A stretch of DNA of 64,000 nucleotides from Enterobacteria phage GiZh, in sequence record NC_054903.1; one strand, written 5' to 3'. The notes beneath the pieces were generated by a model. That model did no database searches, had not been told where the DNA came from, and saw nothing but the letters and a program-made list of their open reading frames with translations. This document shows, piece by piece, positions 1 through 9,544 of this stretch. The stretch's first letter is position 1, and every line of letters begins with the position of its first letter. Made by a program: the position numbers and the translations under genes.

Positions 1-2933
1 GTCCAAACGAAGAAGTTATGGTATTTGGTGCGAATAACGGAACAACCCAAACAATTGAGCTTCAGCTTCCAACTAATATTTCTGTTGGTGATACTGTTAA
101 AATTTCCATGAATTACATGAGAAAAGGACAAACAGTTAAAATCAAAGCTGCCGGTGAAGATAAAATTGCTTCTTCAGTTCAATTACTGCAATTCCCAAAA
201 CGCTCAGAATATCCGCCTGAAGCTGAATGGGTTACAGTCCAAGAATTAGTTTTTAACGGTGAAACTAATTATGTTCCAGTTTTGCAACTTGCTTACATAG
301 AAGATTCTGATGGAAAATATTGGGTTGTACAGCAAAACGTTCCAACCGTAGAAAGAGTAGACTCTTTAAATGATTCTACTAGAGCAAGATTAGGCGTAAT
401 TGCTTTAGCTACACAAGCTCAAGCTAATGTCGATTTAGAAAATTCTCCACAAAAAGAATTAGCAATTACTCCAGAAACATTAGCTAACCGTACTGCTACT
501 GAAACTCGTAGAGGTATTGCAAGAATAGCAACTACTGCTCAAGTGAATCAGAACACCACATTCTCTTTTGCTGATGATATTATCATCACTCCTAAAAAGC
601 TGAATGAAAGAACTGCTACAGAAACTCGCAGAGGTGTCGCAGAAATTGCTACGCAGCAAGAAACTAATACAGGTACTGATGATACTACAATCATTACTCC
701 TAAAAAGCTTCAAGCTCGTCAAGGTTCTGAATCATTATCTGGTATTGTAACTTTTGTATCTACTGCAGGAGCTACTCCAGCTTCTAGTCGTGAATTAAAT
801 GGTACAAATGTTTATAATAAAAACACTAATAATTTAGTTGTTTCGCCTAAAGCTCTGGATCAGTATAAAGCTACTCCAACACAACAAGGTGCAGTAATTT
901 TAGCAGTTGAAAGTGAAGTAATTGCTGGAAAAAGTCAAGAAGGATGGGCAAATGCTGTTGTAACGCCAGAAACGTTACATAAAAAGACATCAACTGATGG
1001 AAGAATTGGTTTAATTGAAATTGCTACACAAAGTGAAGTTAATACAGGAACTGATTATACTCGTGCAGTCACTCCTAAAACTTTAAATGACCGTAAAGCA
1101 ACTGAAAGTTTAAGTGGTATAGCTGAAATTGCTACACAAGTTGAATTCGACGCAGGCGTCGACGATACTCGTATCTCTACACCATTAAAAATTAAAACTA
1201 GATTTAATAGTACTGATCGTACTTCTGTTGTTGCTCTATCTGGATTAGTTGAATCAGGAACTCTCTGGGACCATTATACCCTTAATATTCTTGAAGCAAA
1301 TGAGACGCAACGTGGTACACTTCGTGTAGCTACACAAGTTGAAGCTGCTGCAGGAACATTAGATAATGTTTTAATAACTCCTAAAAAGCTTTTAGGTACT
1401 AAATCTACCGAATCGCAAGAAGGTGTTATTAAAGTTGCAACTCAAGCTGAAACCGTAGCTGGAACATCAGCAAATACTGCTGTATCTCCAAAAAATTTAA
1501 AATGGATTGTGCAGAGTGAACCTACCTGGGCAGCTACTACTGCAATAAGAGGTTTTGTTAAAACTTCATCTGGTTCAATTACATTCGTTGGTAATGATAC
1601 AGTCGGTTCTACCCAAGATTTAGAACTGTATGAGAAAAATAGCTATGCGGTATCACCGTATGAATTAAACCGTGTATTAGCAAATTATTTGCCATTAAAA
1701 GCAAAAGCTGCTGATACAAATTTATTGGATGGTCTAGATTCATCTCAGTTCATTCGTAGGGATATCGCACAGACGGTTAATGGTTCACTAACCTTAACAC
1801 AACAAACGAATCTGAGTGCCCCTCTTGTATCATCTAGTACTGCTACGTTTGGTGGTTCAGTTTCGGCAAATAGTACATTAACTATTTCTAATACTGGAAC
1901 GGTAACTCGTCTGATTTTTGAGAAAGGACCTCAAACTGGAACTAACCCAGCGCAGACGATGACTATTAGAGTTTGGGGAAATCAGTTTGGTGGCGGATCA
2001 GATACAACACGTTCTACTGTATTTGAAGTTGGTGATGAAACATCTAATCACTTTTATTCTCAACGTAATAAAGCTGGTAATATTACGTTTAGCATTAATG
2101 GTACTGTGATGCCAATAAATGTTAACGCTTCCGGTTCATTGAATGCGAATGGCGTAGCAACATTTGGTAGTTCAGTTACAGCCAATGGTGAATTCATTAG
2201 CAAGTCTGCAAATGCTTTCAGAGCAATAAACGGTGATTATGGATTCTTTATCAGGAATGATGGCGGCAGCACATATTTTATGCTTACTGCATCGGGTGAT
2301 CAGACTGGCGGATTTAATGGATTACGTCCTTTAGCTATTAATAATGCATCTGGTCAAGTAACTATTGGTGAAAGCTTAATCATTGCCAAAGGTGCTACTA
2401 TAAATTCAGGTGGTTTAACTGTTAACTCGAGAATTCGTTCTCAGGGCACTAAAACTTCTGACTTATATACCCGTGCGCCAACATCTGATACTGTAGGATT
2501 CTGGTCAATCGATATTAATGATTCAGCTACTTATAACCAATTCCCGGGTTATTTTAAAATGGTTGAAAAAACTAATGAAGTGACTGGACTTCCATACTTA
2601 GAACGTGGCGAAGAAGTTAAATCTCCTGGTACATTGACTCAGTTTGGTAACACACTTGATTCGCTTTACCAAGATTGGATTACTTATCCAACGACTCCAG
2701 AAGCACGTACCACTCGCTGGACACGTACATGGCAGAAAACCAAAAATTCTTGGTCGAGTTTTGTTCAGGTATTTGATGGAGGTAACCCTCCTCAGCCGTC
2801 TGATATCGGTGCTTTGCCATCTGATAATGCTACAATGGGGAATCTTACTATTCGTGATTTCTTACGAATTGGTAATGTTCGCATTATTCCTGACCCAGTG
2901 AATAAATCTGTTAAATTTGAATGGATTGAATAA
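1..2933 (+). CDS. 34: long tail fibre proximal subunit gp34, C-terminal ~970 aa (5' end upstream of window)
   Basis: ORF 18..2933 stays open back to window start; repeated ~40-aa motifs (TPKKL..ATQ..); sits directly upstream of 35-36-37-38-t as in T4. Confidence 0.85.
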   Translation, partial: PNEEVMVFGANNGTTQTIELQLPTNISVGDTVKISMNYMRKGQTVKIKAAGEDKIASSVQLLQFPKRSEYPPEAEWVTVQELVFNGETNYVPVLQLAYIEDSDGKYWVVQQNVPTVERVDSLNDSTRARLGVIALATQAQANVDLENSPQKELAITPETLANRTATETRRGIARIATTAQVNQNTTFSFADDIIITPKKLNERTATETRRGVAEIATQQETNTGTDDTTIITPKKLQARQGSESLSGIVTFVSTAGATPASSRELNGTNVYNKNTNNLVVSPKALDQYKATPTQQGAVILAVESEVIAGKSQEGWANAVVTPETLHKKTSTDGRIGLIEIATQSEVNTGTDYTRAVTPKTLNDRKATESLSGIAEIATQVEFDAGVDDTRISTPLKIKTRFNSTDRTSVVALSGLVESGTLWDHYTLNILEANETQRGTLRVATQVEAAAGTLDNVLITPKKLLGTKSTESQEGVIKVATQAETVAGTSANTAVSPKNLKWIVQSEPTWAATTAIRGFVKTSSGSITFVGNDTVGSTQDLELYEKNSYAVSPYELNRVLANYLPLKAKAADTNLLDGLDSSQFIRRDIAQTVNGSLTLTQQTNLSAPLVSSSTATFGGSVSANSTLTISNTGTVTRLIFEKGPQTGTNPAQTMTIRVWGNQFGGGSDTTRSTVFEVGDETSNHFYSQRNKAGNITFSINGTVMPINVNASGSLNANGVATFGSSVTANGEFISKSANAFRAINGDYGFFIRNDGGSTYFMLTASGDQTGGFNGLRPLAINNASGQVTIGESLIIAKGATINSGGLTVNSRIRSQGTKTSDLYTRAPTSDTVGFWSIDINDSATYNQFPGYFKMVEKTNEVTGLPYLERGEEVKSPGTLTQFGNTLDSLYQDWITYPTTPEARTTRWTRTWQKTKNSWSSFVQVFDGGNPPQPSDIGALPSDNATMGNLTIRDFLRIGNVRIIPDPVNKSVKFEWIE

Positions 2934-2941
2934 GAGGTATT

Positions 2942-4057
2942 ATGGAAAAATTTATGGCAGAGTTTGGACAAGGATATGTCCAAACGCCATTTTTATCGGA
3001 AAGCAATTCAGTAAGATATAAAATAAGCATAGCGGGTTCTTGCCCGCTTTCTACAGCAGGACCATATGTTAAATTTCAGGATAATCCTGTAGGAAGTCAA
3101 ACATTTAGCGCAGGTCTTCATTTAAGAGTTTTTGATCCTTCTACAGGAGCATTAGTTGATAGTAAGTCATATGCTTTTTCGACTTCAAATGATACTACAT
3201 CAGCTGCTTTTGTTAGTTTCATGAATTCTTTGACAAATAATAGAATTGTTGCTATATTAACTAGTGGAAAGGTTAATTTTCCTCCTGAAGTAGTATCTTG
3301 GTTAAGAACCGCAGGAACGTCTGCTTTTCCATCTGACTCTATATTGTCAAGATTCGACGTATCATATGCTGCTTTTTATACTTCTTCTAAAAGAGCTATC
3401 GCATTAGAGCATGTTAAATTAAGTAATAGAAAAAGCACAGATGATTATCAAACTATTTTAGATGTTGTATTTGACAGTTTAGAAGATGTCGGAGCTACCG
3501 GGTTTCCAAGAAGAACGTATGAAAGCGTTGAGCAATTCATGTCAGCGGTTGGTGGAACTAATAACGAAATTGCGCGTTTACCGACTTCATCCGCGATAAG
3601 TAAACTATCTGACTACAATTTAATTCCTGGTGATGTTCTTTATCTTAAAGCACAGCTATACGCCGATGCTGATTTACTTGCTCTTGGAACTACAAATATA
3701 TCTATCCGTTTTTATAATGCATCTAATGGATATATTTCCTCGACACAAGCTGAATTTACTGGGCAAGCTGGGTCATGGGAATTAAAGGAAGATTATGTAG
3801 TTGTTCCAGAAAACGCAGTAGGATTTACGATATACGCACAGAGAACTGCTCAAGCGGGACAAGGCGGTATGCGAAATTTAAGCTTTTCTGAAGTATCAAG
3901 AAATGGCGGCATTTCAAAACCTGCTGAATTTGGCGTCAATGGTATTCGTGTTAATTATATCTGTGAATCTGCTTCACCTCCGGATATAATGGTACTTCCT
4001 ACGCAAGCATCGTCTAAAACTGGTAAAGTGTTTGGGCAAGAATTTAGAGAAGTATAA
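2942..4057 (+). CDS. 35: long tail fibre hinge connector gp35
   Basis: 371 aa (T4 gp35 ~372 aa); position between 34 and 36. Confidence 0.85.
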   Translation: MEKFMAEFGQGYVQTPFLSESNSVRYKISIAGSCPLSTAGPYVKFQDNPVGSQTFSAGLHLRVFDPSTGALVDSKSYAFSTSNDTTSAAFVSFMNSLTNNRIVAILTSGKVNFPPEVVSWLRTAGTSAFPSDSILSRFDVSYAAFYTSSKRAIALEHVKLSNRKSTDDYQTILDVVFDSLEDVGATGFPRRTYESVEQFMSAVGGTNNEIARLPTSSAISKLSDYNLIPGDVLYLKAQLYADADLLALGTTNISIRFYNASNGYISSTQAEFTGQAGSWELKEDYVVVPENAVGFTIYAQRTAQAGQGGMRNLSFSEVSRNGGISKPAEFGVNGIRVNYICESASPPDIMVLPTQASSKTGKVFGQEFREV

Positions 4058-4062
4058 ATTGA

Positions 4063-4089
4063 GGGAGCCTTCGGGTTCCCTTTTTCTTT
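4063..4089 (+). terminator. hairpin (GGGAGCC-UUCG-GGUUCCC) plus T-run after gene 35
   Basis: stem-loop with UUCG tetraloop followed by tttttcttt. Confidence 0.5.
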
Positions 4090-4096
4090 ATAAATA
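4089..4096 (+). promoter_or_regulatory. T4-type late promoter TATAAATA upstream of gene 36
   Basis: exact TATAAATA ~24 nt upstream of ATG at 4120. Confidence 0.5.
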
Positions 4097-4119
4097 CTAT
4101 TAAAATAAAGGGGCATACA

Positions 4120-4785
4120 ATGGCTGATTTAAAAGTAGGTTCAACAACTGGAGGCTCTGTCATTTGGCATCAAGGAAATTTTCCATTGAATCCAGCCGGT
4201 GACGATGTACTCTATAAATCATTTAAAATATATTCAGAATATAACAAACCACAGGCTGCTGATAACGATTTCGTTTCTAAAGCTAATGGTGGTACTTATG
4301 CATCAAAGGTAACATTTAACGGTGGAGTTCAAGTTCCGTATGCTGTAAACAACACAAACCTATGCGGTGTTTATCCAGGTAACGGTGATAATGCTACTTT
4401 TGCTGTAGCAAATATCGATATTGTTTCGTGGAATGGTATTGGTTTTAAATCATCACAAGGTTCAGCAGCTCGAACTGTTGTAATTAATGCACGTAATGGT
4501 GATATTAGTACAAAAGGCGTTGTGTCGGCAGCAGGTCAAGTAAGAAGTGATGCGGCTGCTCCTATAGCAGCGAATGACCTTACTAGAAAGGACTATGTTG
4601 ATGGAGCAATAAATACTGTTACGGCAAATGCAAACTCTAGGGTGCTACGGTCTGGTGACACCATGATAGGTAATTTAACAGCGCCAAACTTTTTCTCGCA
4701 GAATCCTGCATCTCAACCTTCACACGTTCCACGATTTGACCAAATCGTAATTAAGGATTCTGTTCAAGATTTCGGCTATTATTAA
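4120..4785 (+). CDS. 36: long tail fibre distal subunit gp36
   Basis: 221 aa, same as T4 gp36; synteny. Confidence 0.85.
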
Positions 4786-4793
4786 GAGGACTT

Positions 4794-7700
4794 ATGGCTA
4801 CTTTAAAACAAATACAATTTAAAAGAAGCAAAACCGCAGGTGCACGTCCTGCTGCTTCAGTATTAGCCGAAGGTGAATTGGCTATAAACTTAAAAGATAG
4901 AACAATTTTTACTAAAGATGATTCAGGAAATATCATCGATTTAAGCATTTCTGCTGGTGGTAATATCAGTGGTAATATTACTCAAACTGGTGATTATACA
5001 CAGACTGGAAAATTTAATTTAATTGGTCCGCAAATTGTAGAAAGCGGTGGATATATTGAGTTTAATTATCGTACTACTGGAAGTGGGGCTTGGTCCGGTC
5101 AACATACTGCGAAAGCTCCAATTTTTGTAGATTTAAGCTCAGCTACTTCCACATCTGAATATAATCCTATAATTAAACAGCGCTTTAAAGATGGAACTTT
5201 TTCATTAGGTACTTTAGTTTCTGAAGGTTCGTTGAAGATTCATTATATCAATGAATCTGGCGATTCGAAATATTGGACGTTTCGACGTGACGGCGGATTT
5301 ACTGTTGACGGTGGAGGTTTAGGAGTATCAGGAGGTAGTATAACTACATCTGGAAATATTGCAGCTCTCGGAAATATTACTTCGCCTCAGATTAATACTA
5401 AAAATATTATTTTAGATACAAAAGCATTTGGACAATACGATTCGCAGTCATTAGTTCAATATGTTTATCCTGGAACCGGTGAAGAAAACGGTATAAACTA
5501 TCTTCGTAAAGTTCGAGCTAAATCAGGCGGAACTATTTACCATGAAATCGCTTCAGCTCAAACCGGTAAAAATGATGAAATTTCTTGGTGGACCGGAAAT
5601 ACACTTACTACTAAATTAATGGGTCTTCGTAATGATGGCGCAATGGTATTACGTCGTTCACTTGCTATTGGCACAATTACCACTGACGAAAATACTAACA
5701 ACTATGGTTCTCCTACTCCAATGGGAGAAAGATATATTGCTTTGGGCGATGCTGCCACTGGTTTAAAATACATTAAGCAGGGCGTTTATGATTTAGTAGG
5801 TAATTGGAATTCTGTTGCGTCTATTACTCCTGATAGTTTCCGTAGTACTCGTAAAGCGATATTTGGACGTTCAGAAGACCAAGGCGGAACCTGGACAATG
5901 CCTGGAACGAACGCTGCCTTTTTATCAGTTCAAACACAGGCTGATGAAAACACTGCTGGAGACGGCCAGACGCATATTGGCTATAACTCAGGCGGAAAAA
6001 TGAACCACTATTTCCGTGGTAAAGGCAAAACTAATATTAATACTCAGGAAGGTATGGAAGTTAATCCGGGTATTTTGAAATTGGTAACTGGCTCTAATAA
6101 TGTAATGTTTTATGCTGATGGCGGTATTACATCTGTTAAGCAGCTTTCAATATATAATGGCATATATTTAGCAGCTAATAATTCTACTGCTGGGCTAACA
6201 TTCGCTCCAACTACTACAATTGATGGCACTAAGCAAATTTTGTGGGAAGGCGGTACTCGTGCTGGTCAGAATAAAAGCTATGTAACTGTTAAAGCATGGG
6301 GTAATTCATTTAACGCATCTGGCGATCGTAATCGTGAAACGGTTTTTGAAGTAGCTGATGGACAAGGATATTATTTTTATTCACAGCGTGTGGCTCCAAG
6401 TGGCTCTGAAACTACTGGGCCTGTTGTAACCCAGTTCAATGGACAAGTTAATGCTAGAGGAAGTATTATTACTGACGGAAGTTTTAAAGTTAATGGATTA
6501 AGCACTTTAGTCGGTAATGTTACCATGTCTAATGGTTTGTTTGTCCAAGGTGGTTCTTCTATTACTGGACAAGTAAAAATTGGTGGAACTGCTGATGCAT
6601 TAAGAATTTGGAATGCCGAATACGGTGCTATTTTCCGTCGCTCAGAAACAGCATTACATATTATCCCGACTCCTAAAGATGCCGGTGAAAGTGGTGGAAT
6701 AAGTAATCTCCGCCCACTTAGTATTAGTCTTAATAATGGTATGGTACAAATGCGCCATTCTGTTACGTTAGGCGATGATGGCGCTGGCGGTAATATGATT
6801 ACTGTGGACAACGATACCAAACTTGTTGTTGTTACTAGTCATAGTCGTATTTCTCCTAATTACCGTATGCAGGTAGGACAAGCAGCTTATATTGATGCTG
6901 AATGTACTGACACCGTTCGCCCGGCTGGCGCAGGGTCTTTTGCTTCACAAAATAATGAAAACGTTCGTGCTCCGTTCTATATGAATATTAATCGCACAGA
7001 TACAAGTACTTACGTTCCTATTTTAAAACAACGTTATGTTCAAGGAAATAGCTGTTATTCTTTAGGTACTTTAATAAATGGCGGTAACTTCAGAGTTCAT
7101 TATCATGAAGGTGGAGACGGAAGTTCAACAGGCGCAATTATAAAAGATTTAGGCTGGGAATTTACACGTTCTGGTGATTTTATATCTCCTAAGCGCATTT
7201 CTGCTGGGGGTTCAGTTTATTTAGGTACAGACGGTAACATTACTGGTGGTTCTGGTAATTTTGCCAACTTAAATAGTACAATTGAATCACTTAAAACTGA
7301 TATTGTTTCAAGTTATCCTATTGGAGCTCCGATTCCTTGGCCTACTGATACACCTCCTGAAGGTTATGCCATAATGGAAGGTCAAACATTTGATGTTGGC
7401 TTGTATCCTAAGTTAGCTGCGGTGTATCCTTCCGGCTCTCTGCCTGATATGCGCGGGCAAACTATCAAGGGTAAACCATCTGGGCGTGCTGTATTAAGTA
7501 CAGAAGCAGACGGTGTTAAGTCACATAGTCATAGTGCAAGTGCATCAAGCACGGATTTGGGTACTAAGACCACATCAAGCTTTGACTATGGTACTAAGAC
7601 GACAAGTAGTTTCGACTATGGTACTAAGACCAGTAATAATACTGGTGCTCATACGCATAGTTTGAGCGGTTCCACAAACACCGCCGGTGCGCACAGCCAC

Positions 7701-8015
7701 ACAAGCGCTCTTTATGCGGGAAGTAACAACTCTCCTGGTACTGGTTCTATAAGAGGATCCGCCGGTGGTGGTAATACGCTTGGAACTTCTTCTTCTGGGG
7801 CACATTCGCACTCTATATCTGGTACTGCTGCAAGCGCAGGCGCTCACGCGCATACTGTTGGTATTGGTGCTCATACCCATACTGTAGGTATCGGTGCTCA
7901 TACCCACACGGTAGCAATTGGCTCGCATGGTCATACTATCACTGTAAATAGTACAGGTAATACAGAAAACACGGTTAAAAACATTGCTTTTAACTATATT
8001 GTTCGTTTAGCATAA
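4794..8015 (+). CDS. 37: long tail fibre distal subunit / receptor-recognising gp37 (T4-type, His-box tip)
   Basis: 1073 aa; C-terminal HxH repeats ([16 protein letters not shown]...) typical of T4-type gp37 needle tip; synteny. Confidence 0.9.
7560..7640 (+). repeat. tandem 30-bp coding repeat (~2.7 copies) in gp37 tip region, encoding [10 protein letters not shown] units
   Basis: ggtactaagacNacaNcaagNtttgactat repeated head to tail. Confidence 0.8.
7845..7935 (+). repeat. tandem ~30-bp coding repeat encoding AHTHTVGIG His-box units in gp37
   Basis: ggtgctcatacccaYacNgtaggtatc repeated. Confidence 0.75.
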
Positions 8016-8042
8016 GGAGAGGGGCTTCGGCCCCTTCTAAAT
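8014..8042 (+). promoter_or_regulatory. gene 38 translation initiation region: SD (AGGAG) separated from AUG by a GGGGC-UUCG-GCCCC hairpin
   Basis: SD at 8014-8018 is ~24 nt from ATG 8043 with a stable hairpin in between; T4 gene 38 is known for a structured split RBS. Confidence 0.5.
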
Positions 8043-8594
8043 ATGAAAATCTATCATTATTATTTTGACACTAAAGAATTTTACAAAGAAGAAAATTACA
8101 AACCTGTTAAAGGTCTCGGTCTTCCTGCTCATTCAACAATTAAAAAACCTTTAGAACCTAAAGAAGGATACGCAGTTGTATTTGATGAACGTATTCAGGA
8201 TTGGATTTATGAAGAAGACCATCGCGGTAAACGGGCTTGGACTTTTAATAAAGAAGAAATCTTAATAACTGACATAGGAAGCCCGGTTGGTATAACTTTT
8301 GATGAACCCGGCGAATTTGATATATGGACTGATGATGGTTGGAAAGAAGACGAAACATATAAACGCGTTTTAATTCGCAATAGAAAAATTGAAGAATTAT
8401 ACAAAGAATTCCAAGTTTTAAATAATATGATTGAAGCTTCTGTCGCGAATAAAAAGGAAAAATTCTATTATAAAAACCTTAAGCGGTTCTTTGCTCTTTT
8501 AGAAAAGCATGAGCATTTAGGTGGTGAATTTCCTAAATGGCCTGAAAAAGAACAGAAGCCTTGGTATAAGCGTTTATTCAAGCATTACGTATAA
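8043..8594 (+). CDS. 38: tail fibre assembly chaperone gp38 (T4-type)
   Basis: 183 aa, same as T4 gp38; sequence recognised; follows gene 37. Confidence 0.85.
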   Translation: MKIYHYYFDTKEFYKEENYKPVKGLGLPAHSTIKKPLEPKEGYAVVFDERIQDWIYEEDHRGKRAWTFNKEEILITDIGSPVGITFDEPGEFDIWTDDGWKEDETYKRVLIRNRKIEELYKEFQVLNNMIEASVANKKEKFYYKNLKRFFALLEKHEHLGGEFPKWPEKEQKPWYKRLFKHYV

Positions 8595-8597
8595 ATA
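8590..8597 (+). promoter_or_regulatory. T4-type late promoter TATAAATA upstream of holin gene t
   Basis: exact TATAAATA overlapping gene 38 stop, 18 nt before ATG 8615; SD AAGGAGG. Confidence 0.5.
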
Positions 8598-8614
8598 TCT
8601 TAAAAGGAGGGTCT

Positions 8615-9271
8615 ATGGCAGCACCTAGAATATCATTTTCGCCCTCTGATATTCTATTTGGTGTTCTAGATCGCTTGTTCAAAGATAACGCTACCGGGAA
8701 AGTTCTTGCTTCCCGGGTAGCTGTCGTAATTCTTTTATTTATGATGGCGATTGTTTGGTATAGGGGAGATAGTTTCTTTGAGTACTATAAGCAATCAAAG
8801 TATGAAACATACAGTGAAATTATTGAAAAGGAAAGAAATGCACGCTTTGAATCTGTCGCCCTGGAACAACTCCAGATAGTTCATATATCATCTGAGGCAG
8901 ACTTTAGTGCGGTGTATTCTTTCCGCCCTAAAAACTTAAACTATTTTGTTGATATTATAGCATACGAAGGAAGATTACCTTCAACAATAACTGAAAAATC
9001 ACTTGGAGGATATCCTGTTGATAAAACTATGGATGAATATACAGTTCATTTAAATGGACGTCATTATTATTCTGACTCAAAATTTGCTTTTTTACCAACT
9101 AAAAAGCCTACTCCCGAAATAAACTACATGTACAGTTGTCCATATTTTAATTTGGATAATATCTATGCTGGAACGATAACCATGTACTGGTATAGAAATG
9201 ATCATATAAGTAATGACCGCCTTGAATCAATATGTGCTCAGGCGGCCAGAATATTAGGAAGGGCTAAATAA
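8615..9271 (+). CDS. t: holin T
   Basis: 218 aa, same as T4 holin; sequence recognised (MAAPRISFSPSDILFG..). Confidence 0.9.
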   Translation: MAAPRISFSPSDILFGVLDRLFKDNATGKVLASRVAVVILLFMMAIVWYRGDSFFEYYKQSKYETYSEIIEKERNARFESVALEQLQIVHISSEADFSAVYSFRPKNLNYFVDIIAYEGRLPSTITEKSLGGYPVDKTMDEYTVHLNGRHYYSDSKFAFLPTKKPTPEINYMYSCPYFNLDNIYAGTITMYWYRNDHISNDRLESICAQAARILGRAK

Positions 9272-9544
9272 TTATTTGTTCGTATACATCTCTAGATATC
9301 GATATACACCCTCAAAACCCTCGTTGAATTCGTCGATGAGGGTTTTCTTATCTTCTTGGGTTAATTCAGAAACAATTTTACGGAATGAATTTTGATTTAA
9401 CTTTCTACCTTCATGCGTTACTCCAATCTCATTCAGAAATGCAATAAAATTAGCACGATTTTCAACAATATCTTCTCTGGAAAATTTAATCAAAATAGAC
9501 GCAACAGTAATAATTTCACGAACTGTATCAATGTTTTTATTCAT
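9272..9544 (-). CDS. asiA: anti-sigma70 factor AsiA
   Basis: 90 aa; sequence recognised (MNKNIDTVREIITVASILIKF..). Confidence 0.9.
   Translation of the reverse strand: MNKNIDTVREIITVASILIKFSREDIVENRANFIAFLNEIGVTHEGRKLNQNSFRKIVSELTQEDKKTLIDEFNEGFEGVYRYLEMYTNK

Follow-up and report, generated by a model that had tools for sequence, protein, structure and literature searches.

The distal part of gene 37 of Enterobacteria phage GiZh (sequence record NC_054903.1; the whole stretch analysed, 64,000 nucleotides long, is called the window below) contains two tandem coding repeats, and we consider it probable, at a rough probability of 0.78, that the two arrays form opposite halves of a single type of stem layer in the gp37 needle. 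Repeats of both kinds are familiar components of the iron-binding needle at the tip of T4-type tail fibres, and GiZh carries one layer beyond T4. By analogy with T4, receptor specificity would lie in the head of the needle, and the repeats would set the length of its stem.

Results

Gene 37 and its neighbourhood

Gene 37, encoding the distal subunit of the long tail fibre, occupies positions 4794-8015 in the ORF list and its translation (this and all features below lie on the plus strand unless stated otherwise). Its product has 1073 aa against 1026 aa for T4 gp37 (NC_000866), the lengths given in a preliminary description of this DNA, and it shares 67% of its residues with T4 gp37 and 96% with gp37 of Shigella phage ESh33. 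The genes for gp34, gp35 and gp36 lie upstream, and those for gp38 and the holin t downstream. Gene 38 (8043-8594) encodes a T4-type tail-fibre assembly chaperone of 183 aa, identical to T4 gp38 at 179 of 183 residues (98%). The preliminary description was right to name the gene gp37, and it is that of a T4-type phage. Because gp38 is of the chaperone type, the C-terminus of gp37 is the adhesin. In T2/T6-type phages the adhesin is gp38, which caps gp37 at the fibre tip and likewise recognises the host; it is a protein of about 260 aa in which glycine-rich motifs accompany hypervariable segments, unlike the 183-residue gp38 of GiZh, and it is unrelated in sequence and fold to gp37, which is itself the adhesin here. 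In T2/T6-type gp38 the variable segments are flanked by conserved repeated motifs thought to mediate modular exchange (PMC3157838).

A promoter and terminator scan of positions 7300-8700 gave no signal above shuffle expectation, and no tRNA genes were found within the window. An antisense open reading frame at 7575-7934 was set aside as a probable by-product of histidine codons, since CAT and CAC read as ATG and GTG on the opposite strand.

Two tandem repeats in the distal part of gp37

Both repeats were recovered by Tandem Repeats Finder: a 30-bp period at 7560-7632 (2.4 copies, score 104, 83% matches) and a 27-bp period at 7842-7914 (2.7 copies, score 90, 84% matches). Up to 14 consecutive residues match the residue one period further along the chain, and in 2000 codon shuffles the longest such run had a mean of 3.2 and a maximum of 6, whether the whole gene or the C-terminal 200 codons alone were shuffled; chance repetition is thereby ruled out. 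The tandem coding repeats of the preliminary description are thus real, and two of its measurements need adjusting: the first unit is indeed 30 bp long, present in about 2.4 rather than about 2.7 copies, and the second does encode AHTHTVGIG His boxes (known HxH motifs), with a period of 27 rather than about 30 bp.

The first array consists of two units with exactly the same ten-residue protein sequence, ending in FDY (aa 923-932 and 933-942). FDY unit 1 (7560-7589) has an equivalent in T4, and FDY unit 2 (7590-7619) stands opposite a gap of 10 aa in the T4 sequence; a degenerate third ten-residue unit (7620-7649), within which a recombination junction lies (see below), leads into the second HxH motif. 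The second array comprises three 27-bp His units, AHAHTVGIG, AHTHTVGIG and AHTHTVAIG (aa 1017-1043, 7842-7922); T4 has two such units, so that one 9-aa unit is extra in GiZh. After it comes a fourth unit of degenerate sequence, SHGHTITVN (7923-7949), which nearly all relatives keep. In phage teqhad, a repeat_region is annotated at the position of the 27-bp His units.

Of the 47 aa by which GiZh gp37 exceeds its T4 counterpart, only 19 come from the repeats; 16 others fall in aa 60-190 and 12 in aa 550-810 (including an insertion of 11 aa at aa 652), and the tip contributes a net of 0.

Architecture of the needle

The C-terminal part of GiZh gp37 matches the T4 needle structure (PDB 2XGF) at E=1.2e-98 over residues 29-288 of the query, and aligns end to end with the T4 chain at about 66-70% identity over the needle. 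The only large gaps against 2XGF are one of 10 aa in the FDY array and one of 9 aa at the AHxHTVGIG units, and the full-length alignment agrees. With the stem and head boundaries of T4 taken from published work (PMC6957217), the needle can be divided as follows. The collar domain, the first half of knob D10 (aa 844-891, 7323-7466), precedes the stem, aligns to 2XGF and is recognised by the Pfam family PF07484 Collar (E=1.2e-10; 41.6 bits against a cut-off of 24). The ascending arm of the stem (aa 910-969, 7521-7700) has 60 aa, compared with 50 in T4 (882-931), and carries the HxH motifs H1 (7524-7532), H2 (7650-7658) and H3 (7692-7700). The head, or tip sub-domain (aa 970-997, 7701-7784), homologous in position to T4 932-959, is the putative receptor-binding surface and the most variable segment among relatives. 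The descending arm (aa 998-1056, 7785-7961) has 59 aa, compared with 50 in T4 (960-1009), and carries H4 (7803-7811), H5 (7845-7853), H6 (7872-7880), H7 (7899-7907) and H8 (7926-7934). The chain then returns to the collar, its last 45 residues being those of T4.

The needle of GiZh therefore shares with that of T4 (domains D10-D11) the collar, a stem with axial HxH motifs, the head between the arms and the chaperone gene downstream; the T4 stem is trimeric, intertwined and six-stranded, with an octahedrally coordinated iron at every HxH level, and that of GiZh is predicted to be built alike. The HxH motifs of T4 begin at residues 883, 915 and 929 in the ascending arm and 966, 980, 989 and 998 in the descending arm, in agreement with the H929/H931 motif and the seven irons of the published description (PMC6957217). 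GiZh differs by one additional FDY unit (10 aa) and one additional His unit (9 aa), which gives eight HxH motifs instead of seven, three ascending and five descending. The two heads are unrelated in sequence and belong to an equal length class, with 34 residues from H3 to H4. In T4, the residues needed for binding LPS and OmpC sit in the head, at 932-959 (PMC6957217). Both arrays are thus parts of the stem flanking the head, rather than of the receptor-binding tip in which they had been placed. The Pfam family PF03335 Phage_fiber, a 14-aa repeat, matches the head-proximal HxHxxSG unit of GiZh (aa 948-961; 24.6 bits against a gathering threshold of 20); it models the 14-aa double-His unit, not the tandem 10-aa FDY or 9-aa xHxHxVxIG units.

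AlphaFold2 models of the needle were set aside, because the layer register belongs to an intertwined trimer and is beyond what a model of the monomer can test. Predicted as a monomer without an alignment, the needle had a pLDDT of 41 and no secondary structure; with a 36-sequence alignment the pLDDT was 58.6 and strands appeared only in the head-proximal hairpin, without the FDY and His layers, and Foldseek matched this second model to 2XGF at E=6e-13 with a TM score of 0.34 and an rmsd of 15 Å.

A proposed stem layer made of both arrays

The register between the arms, which was extrapolated from the domain boundaries and two published contacts and not from the 2XGF coordinates, is antiparallel: in T4 the residue pairs 882/1009 and 931/960 and the reported inter-arm contact G921-F970 (PMC6957217) each sum to 1891, and H929-G964 sums to 1893. 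This register sets the T4 FDY unit (895-904) opposite residues 987-996, the unit that is duplicated in GiZh. In the arrangement that we propose, the gp37 chain would leave the collar, run outward as the ascending arm, form the small receptor-binding head and come back as the descending arm, and three chains would build a six-stranded stem whose axis is lined with HxH motifs, with one iron per trimer motif as in T4. The part of the ascending arm next to the collar is made of histidine-free 10-aa GTKxxSxFDY units, and opposite these the descending arm would be made of 9-aa xHxHxVxIG units supplying the axial histidines. Such repeats would give a rigid, folding-competent stem of set length and leave specificity to the head between the arrays.

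Two FDY units, together with the one His unit beyond T4, would therefore amount to one extra layer and about 20% more stem; the GiZh needle is predicted to contain an eighth iron site, and its extra length in nm is likewise a prediction. A relation between the count of di-His motifs and needle length has been described before (PMC12609058). Since each layer needs both halves, the arrays could change in number only together, and unmatched forms of the needle would presumably fold badly.

Matching of the two arms across needles

To examine the coupling of the arms, 161 distinct needles were compared, drawn from T4-like phages, from the fibres of lambdoid and P2-like prophages and from IMG/VR contigs. 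The number of descending HxH motifs equals the number of ascending HxH motifs plus the number of FDY units in 156 of 161, and the ascending span exceeds the descending one by 14-16 aa in 157 of 161. When arms were reshuffled among needles, those with a span difference in this range averaged 49 and never exceeded 69, against 157 in the real set, a control that overstates the significance because the needle sequences are related; the matching could in part reflect inheritance of whole needles instead of selection. All of the seven architecture classes among the 161 needles are matched, and there are five tip types that sit on two different stem architectures apiece, both arms having changed in a matched manner every time. 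The rule that takes the largest HxH-free gap as the tip mis-parsed four needles (P0026, P0054, P0200 and P0215), which have substituted histidines or histidines within FDY units and were inspected by eye. Metagenome 3300030021 contains one intact T4-like gp37 (L003) that is unmatched, with two FDY units and only four descending HxH motifs; either the mismatch is tolerated or the sequence contains an assembly error. As the arrays change jointly (156-157 of 161), expansion or contraction of a single array is apparently selected against.

Stem length itself might be a determinant of host range, an extra layer allowing the head to reach its receptor through thicker LPS, O-antigen or capsule, so that matched gain or loss of layers would be adaptive on particular hosts. 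The five contrasts with repeated matched gains and losses on one head type are in keeping with this, as are the long and short tail fibre tips of Bas63 (Felixounavirus), in which six or seven di-His motifs are found, their number varying with needle length (PMC12609058); these tips resemble the GiZh needle by description (collar, HxH needle and head), their sequences being distant. Against it, stem span and tip length are uncorrelated (r=0.02), 2+5 stems (two FDY units and five descending HxH motifs) occur in phages isolated on K-12, O157 and Shigella, and the change in length is small relative to the whole fibre, and we regard an adaptive role of this kind as improbable.

A more general formulation, offered tentatively and in our view rather unlikely to hold, would be a grammar of the needle, in which type A layers have 14-aa HxHxxSG units in both arms, type B layers have 10-aa GTKxxSxFDY units facing 9-aa xHxHxVxIG units, and a needle with a layers of type A and b layers of type B has 4 + 2a + b iron sites. 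Layers would be gained and lost only as matched pairs, and stem length could evolve apart from head specificity, tuning the reach of the head through cell-surface polysaccharide. The formula gives 7 iron sites for T4 and 8 for GiZh. No explicit statement of such a grammar was found in the literature searched; if true, it could also serve as a design rule when fibres are to be engineered to a chosen length.

Copy number among relatives and age of the duplication

Alignment of gp37 C-termini, a check proposed in the preliminary description, recovered variation in unit number among relatives (1+4, 2+5 and 3+6), so that the invariant repeat number which would have spoken against that description is not seen. 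T4 and PhiZZ23 have one FDY unit and four descending HxH motifs, some prophage fibres have three and six, and the 2+5 form is the commonest among the T4-like phages sampled (12 of 15: GiZh and 11 others), where it occurs on several different tips. At least five heads unrelated to one another are found on the 2+5 stem, and a single head type can be combined with either a 1+4 or a 2+5 stem. The close relatives sampled (S1P5QW, ESh33, ECO07P2, F2, AV117, teqhad and others) have equal unit numbers, and differences are confined to more distant needles.

Were the arrays hypermutable, frequent slippage-driven expansion and contraction would alter the geometry of the tip and switch host range within populations. 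The difference in copy number between T4 and PhiZZ23 on the one hand and GiZh on the other could be read in this way, as could L003, which resembles a single-arm change, and phage AV122, in which two His units are identical in DNA (a perfect 54-bp tandem), suggestive of recent conversion or duplication. Slippage-prone repeats are marked by long stretches of perfect or near-perfect DNA identity between adjacent units, and those of GiZh lack them: adjacent units have 5-6 differences per 27-30 nt (78-81% DNA identity), with a longest shared run of about 11 nt, and FDY units 1 and 2 differ at 6 of 30 nt, comprising four synonymous codons and no non-synonymous ones. Furthermore, each copy is orthologous across many phages and retains its own synonymous signature (that of FDY unit 2 is also found in ECO07P2, F2, AV117 and teqhad), and this orthology, combined with the synonymous divergence, indicates an old, stably inherited duplication rather than a slippage-prone tract. 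The prevalence of the 2+5 form in spite of different heads, the near absence of single-arm changes (1 of 161) and the mapping of the T4 specificity residues to the head (PMC6957217) also argue against hypermutability, which we consider very improbable. Of the proposal that repeat expansion or contraction offers an obvious route to host-range variation, what survives is that unit number varies; that such changes are a ready route is not supported, as specificity lies in the head, the arrays are matched and the copies are old.

Mosaicism of gene 37

On comparison with its relatives, gene 37 of GiZh is a three-part mosaic. Positions 4794-7297 have 2 mismatches to ESh33, positions 7617-8015 have 0 mismatches to vB_EcoM-S1P5QW, and the patch between them (7298-7616) has 31 shared sites that differ from both. 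The right-hand junction falls between 7616, the final position at which GiZh and S1P5QW differ, and 7639, where a difference from ESh33 alone first occurs, in the region of GTK unit 3 and H2. The relatives concerned (the Tequatrovirus phages S1P5QW and PNJ-9 for the needle, Shigella phage ESh33 for the shaft) have a 2+5 architecture like that of GiZh. The combination of an ESh33-like shaft, the third-donor patch at 7298-7616 and an S1P5QW-like needle in one gene was not found in the phage collection.

Recombination at the His boxes is a classical idea, and the GTK and HxH units may be mainly conserved patches of DNA for the swapping of heads by homologous recombination, with host range changing through recombination and not through copy number; we regard this as possible, though not as the likely reading. 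The mosaic gene, with its right-hand junction in the GTK unit 3 and H2 region, favours such a role, as does the presence of the GiZh head in the side tail fibre of the Nonagvirus siphophage PD328 and in prophage fibres of Shigella and E. coli. In BLAST, many phages match the conserved flanks only, as two separate pieces on either side of a divergent centre, and it is established that the C-terminus of T4 g37, with g38, was acquired from lambda-like phages (PMC3157838). However, only a single junction was mapped, to a 23-nt interval, and junctions would fall in or near the repeats by default because the whole stem is conserved; moreover, the protein sequence of the units is conserved while synonymous change is free, which points to selection on the protein and not on DNA identity. 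Exchange of heads would be compatible with the arrays being stem layers, as a second role of the same sequences.

Related receptor-binding fibres

Beyond the T4-like phages, the needle belongs with the T4/lambda receptor-binding module, a family described previously (PMC9659904), which includes lambdoid side tail fibres (Stf) and further fibres encoded by prophages. Matches at E<1e-80 run into the hundreds among the prophage proteins of E. coli and Shigella. These fibres share the collar, stem, head, unit types and matching rule of GiZh; they differ in their N-terminal shafts (lambda Stf-like or P2 gpH-like) and in that most are 1+4. Lambda tfa belongs to the homologue class of the T4-type g38 chaperone, whose gene lies directly downstream of gp37 in GiZh.

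Discussion

In the repeat-bearing segment of GiZh gp37 we see the stem of a receptor-binding module that is already well characterised, and not a new or hypermutable element; the practical value of this result lies in annotation and engineering. Work that predicts or engineers host range in T4-like phages should examine the head, which lies between H3 and H4 (7701-7784 in GiZh), and a stem should be lengthened or shortened by an FDY unit together with a His unit. Kept in 156-157 of 161 needles, the matching rule puts a constraint on the design of chimeric fibres that is both compact and testable, and it predicts that tips of the 2+5 architecture would hold 8 iron ions per fibre, as against 7.

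Gene cluster and tandem repeats

As the long-tail-fibre cluster of a T4-like phage (of the genus Tequatrovirus, judged by best matches), positions 1-9300 of the window carry gp34 (18..2933 as listed), gp35 (2942..4057), gp36 (4120..4785), the distal fibre subunit gp37 (4794..8015, plus strand; 1073 aa), gp38 (8043..8594; 183 aa) and the holin gene t (8615..9271). The gp38 product shares 179 of its 183 residues with the gp38 assembly chaperone of T4, and therefore the fibre follows the T4 arrangement, in which the adhesin is the C-terminus of gp37 itself; this differs from the T2/T6 arrangement, with gp38 as adhesin (PMC3157838). The stretch that separates gp37 (stop codon 8013-8015) from gp38 (start 8043) contains a hairpin with a UUCG-type loop (8021-8034; GGGGC-TTCG-GCCCC), which adjoins an AAGGAG ribosome-binding site and whose T4 counterpart is one base pair shorter; a terminator scan made no call there because no T run lies 3' of the hairpin. 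ARAGORN found no tRNA or tmRNA genes in the whole 64-kb window.

The preliminary description had placed tandem coding repeats in gp37, and their presence and location are borne out by Tandem Repeats Finder and by codon shuffling. The two arrays it reported are there, with a 30-bp unit in 2.4 copies at 7560-7632 and a 27-bp unit in 2.7 copies at 7842-7914; the first had been credited with 2.7 copies, and the second unit had been taken for one of 30 bp. When translated, the 30-bp array gives one 10-aa unit twice and then a degenerate third copy, and the 27-bp array gives 9-aa His units, including AHTHTVAIG, followed by a degenerate SHGHTITVN. Periodic identity in gp37 amounts to 14 residues, whereas the highest value among 2000 codon shuffles was 6; the shuffles never came near the observed value, and the repeats are therefore real. 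An antisense open reading frame (7575-7934, minus strand, 119 aa, ATG start) lies wholly inside the repeat and His region, and is probably a by-product of stop-poor composition and of His codons (CAT/CAC) that read as ATG/GTG on the opposite strand.

The greater length of gp37 relative to T4 (1026 aa) was also reported correctly. The excess of 47 residues comprises 10 and 9 in the repeats, 16 in a variable region (aa 60-190) and 12 in the mid-shaft, the tip being net zero. The variable region, which is N-proximal (about 4980-5360), is strongly divergent from T4, with DNA identity down to about 39% at 5076-5359 and a net 16 residues extra, and the shaft carries an 11-aa insertion relative to T4 (aa 652-662; 6747-6779); both are common to Shigella phage ESh33.

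Repeats as probable layers of the needle stem

The last 260 residues of gp37 match the T4 needle crystal structure (2XGF; E=1.2e-98), and Pfam detects a Collar domain and a Phage_fiber repeat, both above threshold. In T4, the knob domain D10 consists of residues 811-881 plus 1010-1026 and is interrupted by D11 (882-1009). D11 is made up of a stem (882-931 and 960-1009) and of the tip through which LPS and OmpC are bound (932-959), and seven iron ions lie on the needle axis, with ligands that include H929 and H931 (PMC6957217). Thus the chain runs outward and then returns. Alignment to T4 assigns aa 910-969 of the window's gp37 to the ascending arm, 970-997 to the head and 998-1056 to the descending arm. 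The preliminary description had put the repeats in the receptor-binding tip: its interval (7552-7940) covers most of the stem and does include the head, but the repeats themselves are stem, on opposite arms.

The T4 HxH motifs fall at 883, 915 and 929 on the ascending arm and at 966, 980, 989 and 998 on the descending one, consistent with that published anatomy (PMC6957217); the window has eight, at aa 911, 953 and 967 and at 1004, 1018, 1027, 1036 and 1045. Only two sizeable stem gaps separate it from T4, one of 10 aa (a second ascending unit of the form GTKxxSxFDY, here the FDY unit) and one of 9 aa (a descending AHxHTVGIG), giving arms of 60 and 59 residues versus 50 and 50. In T4 the stem boundaries (882 with 1009, 931 with 960) and a published contact (G921-F970) each give a residue sum of 1891, and the contact H929-G964 gives 1893. 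Extrapolated from these pairs rather than read from coordinates, an antiparallel register would set the T4 FDY unit (895-904) opposite the His unit 987-996, and thus His-free outgoing FDY units would face His-bearing 9-aa return units. The gain of one FDY unit and one His unit would then amount to one complete stem layer, and the two arrays would co-vary because each layer needs both halves. This structural reading is the best supported for both repeats.

Matching of the two arms among relatives

From 263 homologues (two protein searches), 80 IMG/VR loci and 15 phage records we assembled 161 distinct needles, belonging to T4-like gp37, lambda Stf-like and P2 gpH-like prophage fibres, and one Nonagvirus siphophage. 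In 156 of the 161, ascending HxH motifs and FDY units together are as many as the descending HxH motifs. The ascending and descending spans differ by 14-16 aa in 157 needles, versus a mean of 49 and a maximum of 69 when arms were reshuffled among needles, a control that overstates the significance of the match since the needles are related by descent. More independent evidence is provided by five head types that each occur on two stem architectures, matched every time; the PhiZZ23 head, for example, has one FDY unit and four descending motifs (1+4) in PhiZZ23 and two and five (2+5) in the homologue P0006.

Written as ascending HxH, FDY units and descending HxH, seven architecture classes were found: (2,1,3), (2,2,4), (2,3,5), (3,1,4) as in T4, (3,2,5) as in the window, (3,3,6) and (4,2,6). 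A second kind of layer is visible among them, a 14-aa HxHxxSG unit on both arms, and it follows from the known fold that the predicted number of iron sites is 4 + 2a + b, where a counts the 14-aa double-His layers and b the FDY/His layers. This formula and the explicit matching rule may be without earlier statement in print.

Four of the five exceptions reflect substituted or extra histidines that misled the parser. The fifth, locus L003 (67-2091 of IMGVR_UViG_3300030021_000020), alone among the 161 has arms that genuinely do not match: it is an intact T4-like gp37 with two FDY units, only four descending HxH motifs and a gp38 chaperone downstream. Its mismatch may be tolerated, may stem from recent recombination, or may be an error or collapse in assembly, and it is the one loose end worth a look. 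Another homologue, P0121 (938 aa), has an ascending arm (H1, FDY, H2, H3), then the first part of a head, then shaft, and after that a second, complete collar plus needle; with its one and a half needle modules, it looks like the product of a fusion or recombination.

Age of the copies and mosaicism of gp37

FDY copies 1 and 2 differ at 6 of 30 nucleotides, all synonymous, and neighbouring His units at 5-6 of 27, mostly synonymous; copy-specific synonymous signatures are common to several phages (e.g., ECO07P2, F2, AV117 and teqhad). The duplication is therefore old and has been kept by selection on the protein, and the DNA identity between copies would offer little for slippage. The 2+5 form, the commonest architecture in sequenced T4-like phages, occurs in 12 of the 15 inspected, where it carries five or more different heads; the 1+4 form is that of T4 and PhiZZ23, and ZQ3 is 2+4, with one 14-aa layer fewer. 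The deposited annotation of phage teqhad already marks the His units with a repeat_region. In gp37 of Escherichia phage AV122, one 27-bp His unit is followed directly by an exact DNA copy of itself (GCTCATACACATACTGTAGGTATTGGT twice), versus diverged copies in the window, which suggests recent gene conversion or re-duplication.

Positions 4794-7297 differ from ESh33 at 2 nucleotides and 7617-8015 are identical to vB_EcoM-S1P5QW, while the patch between them (7298-7616) differs from both at the same 31 positions, which implies a third donor and a three-part mosaic; the three parts do not occur together in any one record of the phage collection. The right-hand junction falls in the third GTK unit, directly before H2. 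This allows the conserved units a secondary role as recombination sites, although one junction proves little. The window's head with its 2+5 stem is also found in the side tail fibre of Escherichia phage vB_EcoM_PD328, a Nonagvirus siphophage that belongs to another subfamily, and, at 91% identity, in a Shigella sonnei protein, and the head sequence recurs in prophage proteins of Shigella and E. coli. Horizontal transfer has evidently carried the needle module between myo- and siphoviruses, and the mosaicism fits the long-standing view of a module moving between phages (PMC3157838; PMC9659904).

Implications for host range

Collar, two-armed HxH stem, head insertion, conserved C-terminus and chaperone are all present in the window, placing it with the T4 gp37 needle family; its iron binding and trimer geometry are predicted by analogy with T4. 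The repeats are a real feature of an already known kind. The proposal that their expansion or contraction varies host range holds only in part: unit number does vary among relatives, but it does so over evolutionary time, with the two arms changing in lock-step, and independently of head type. A cryo-EM study of Bas63 had already noted that needle length and the number of di-His motifs go together (PMC12609058). As stem layers, the repeats would supply axial histidines and set the length of the needle, and specificity would reside in the head.
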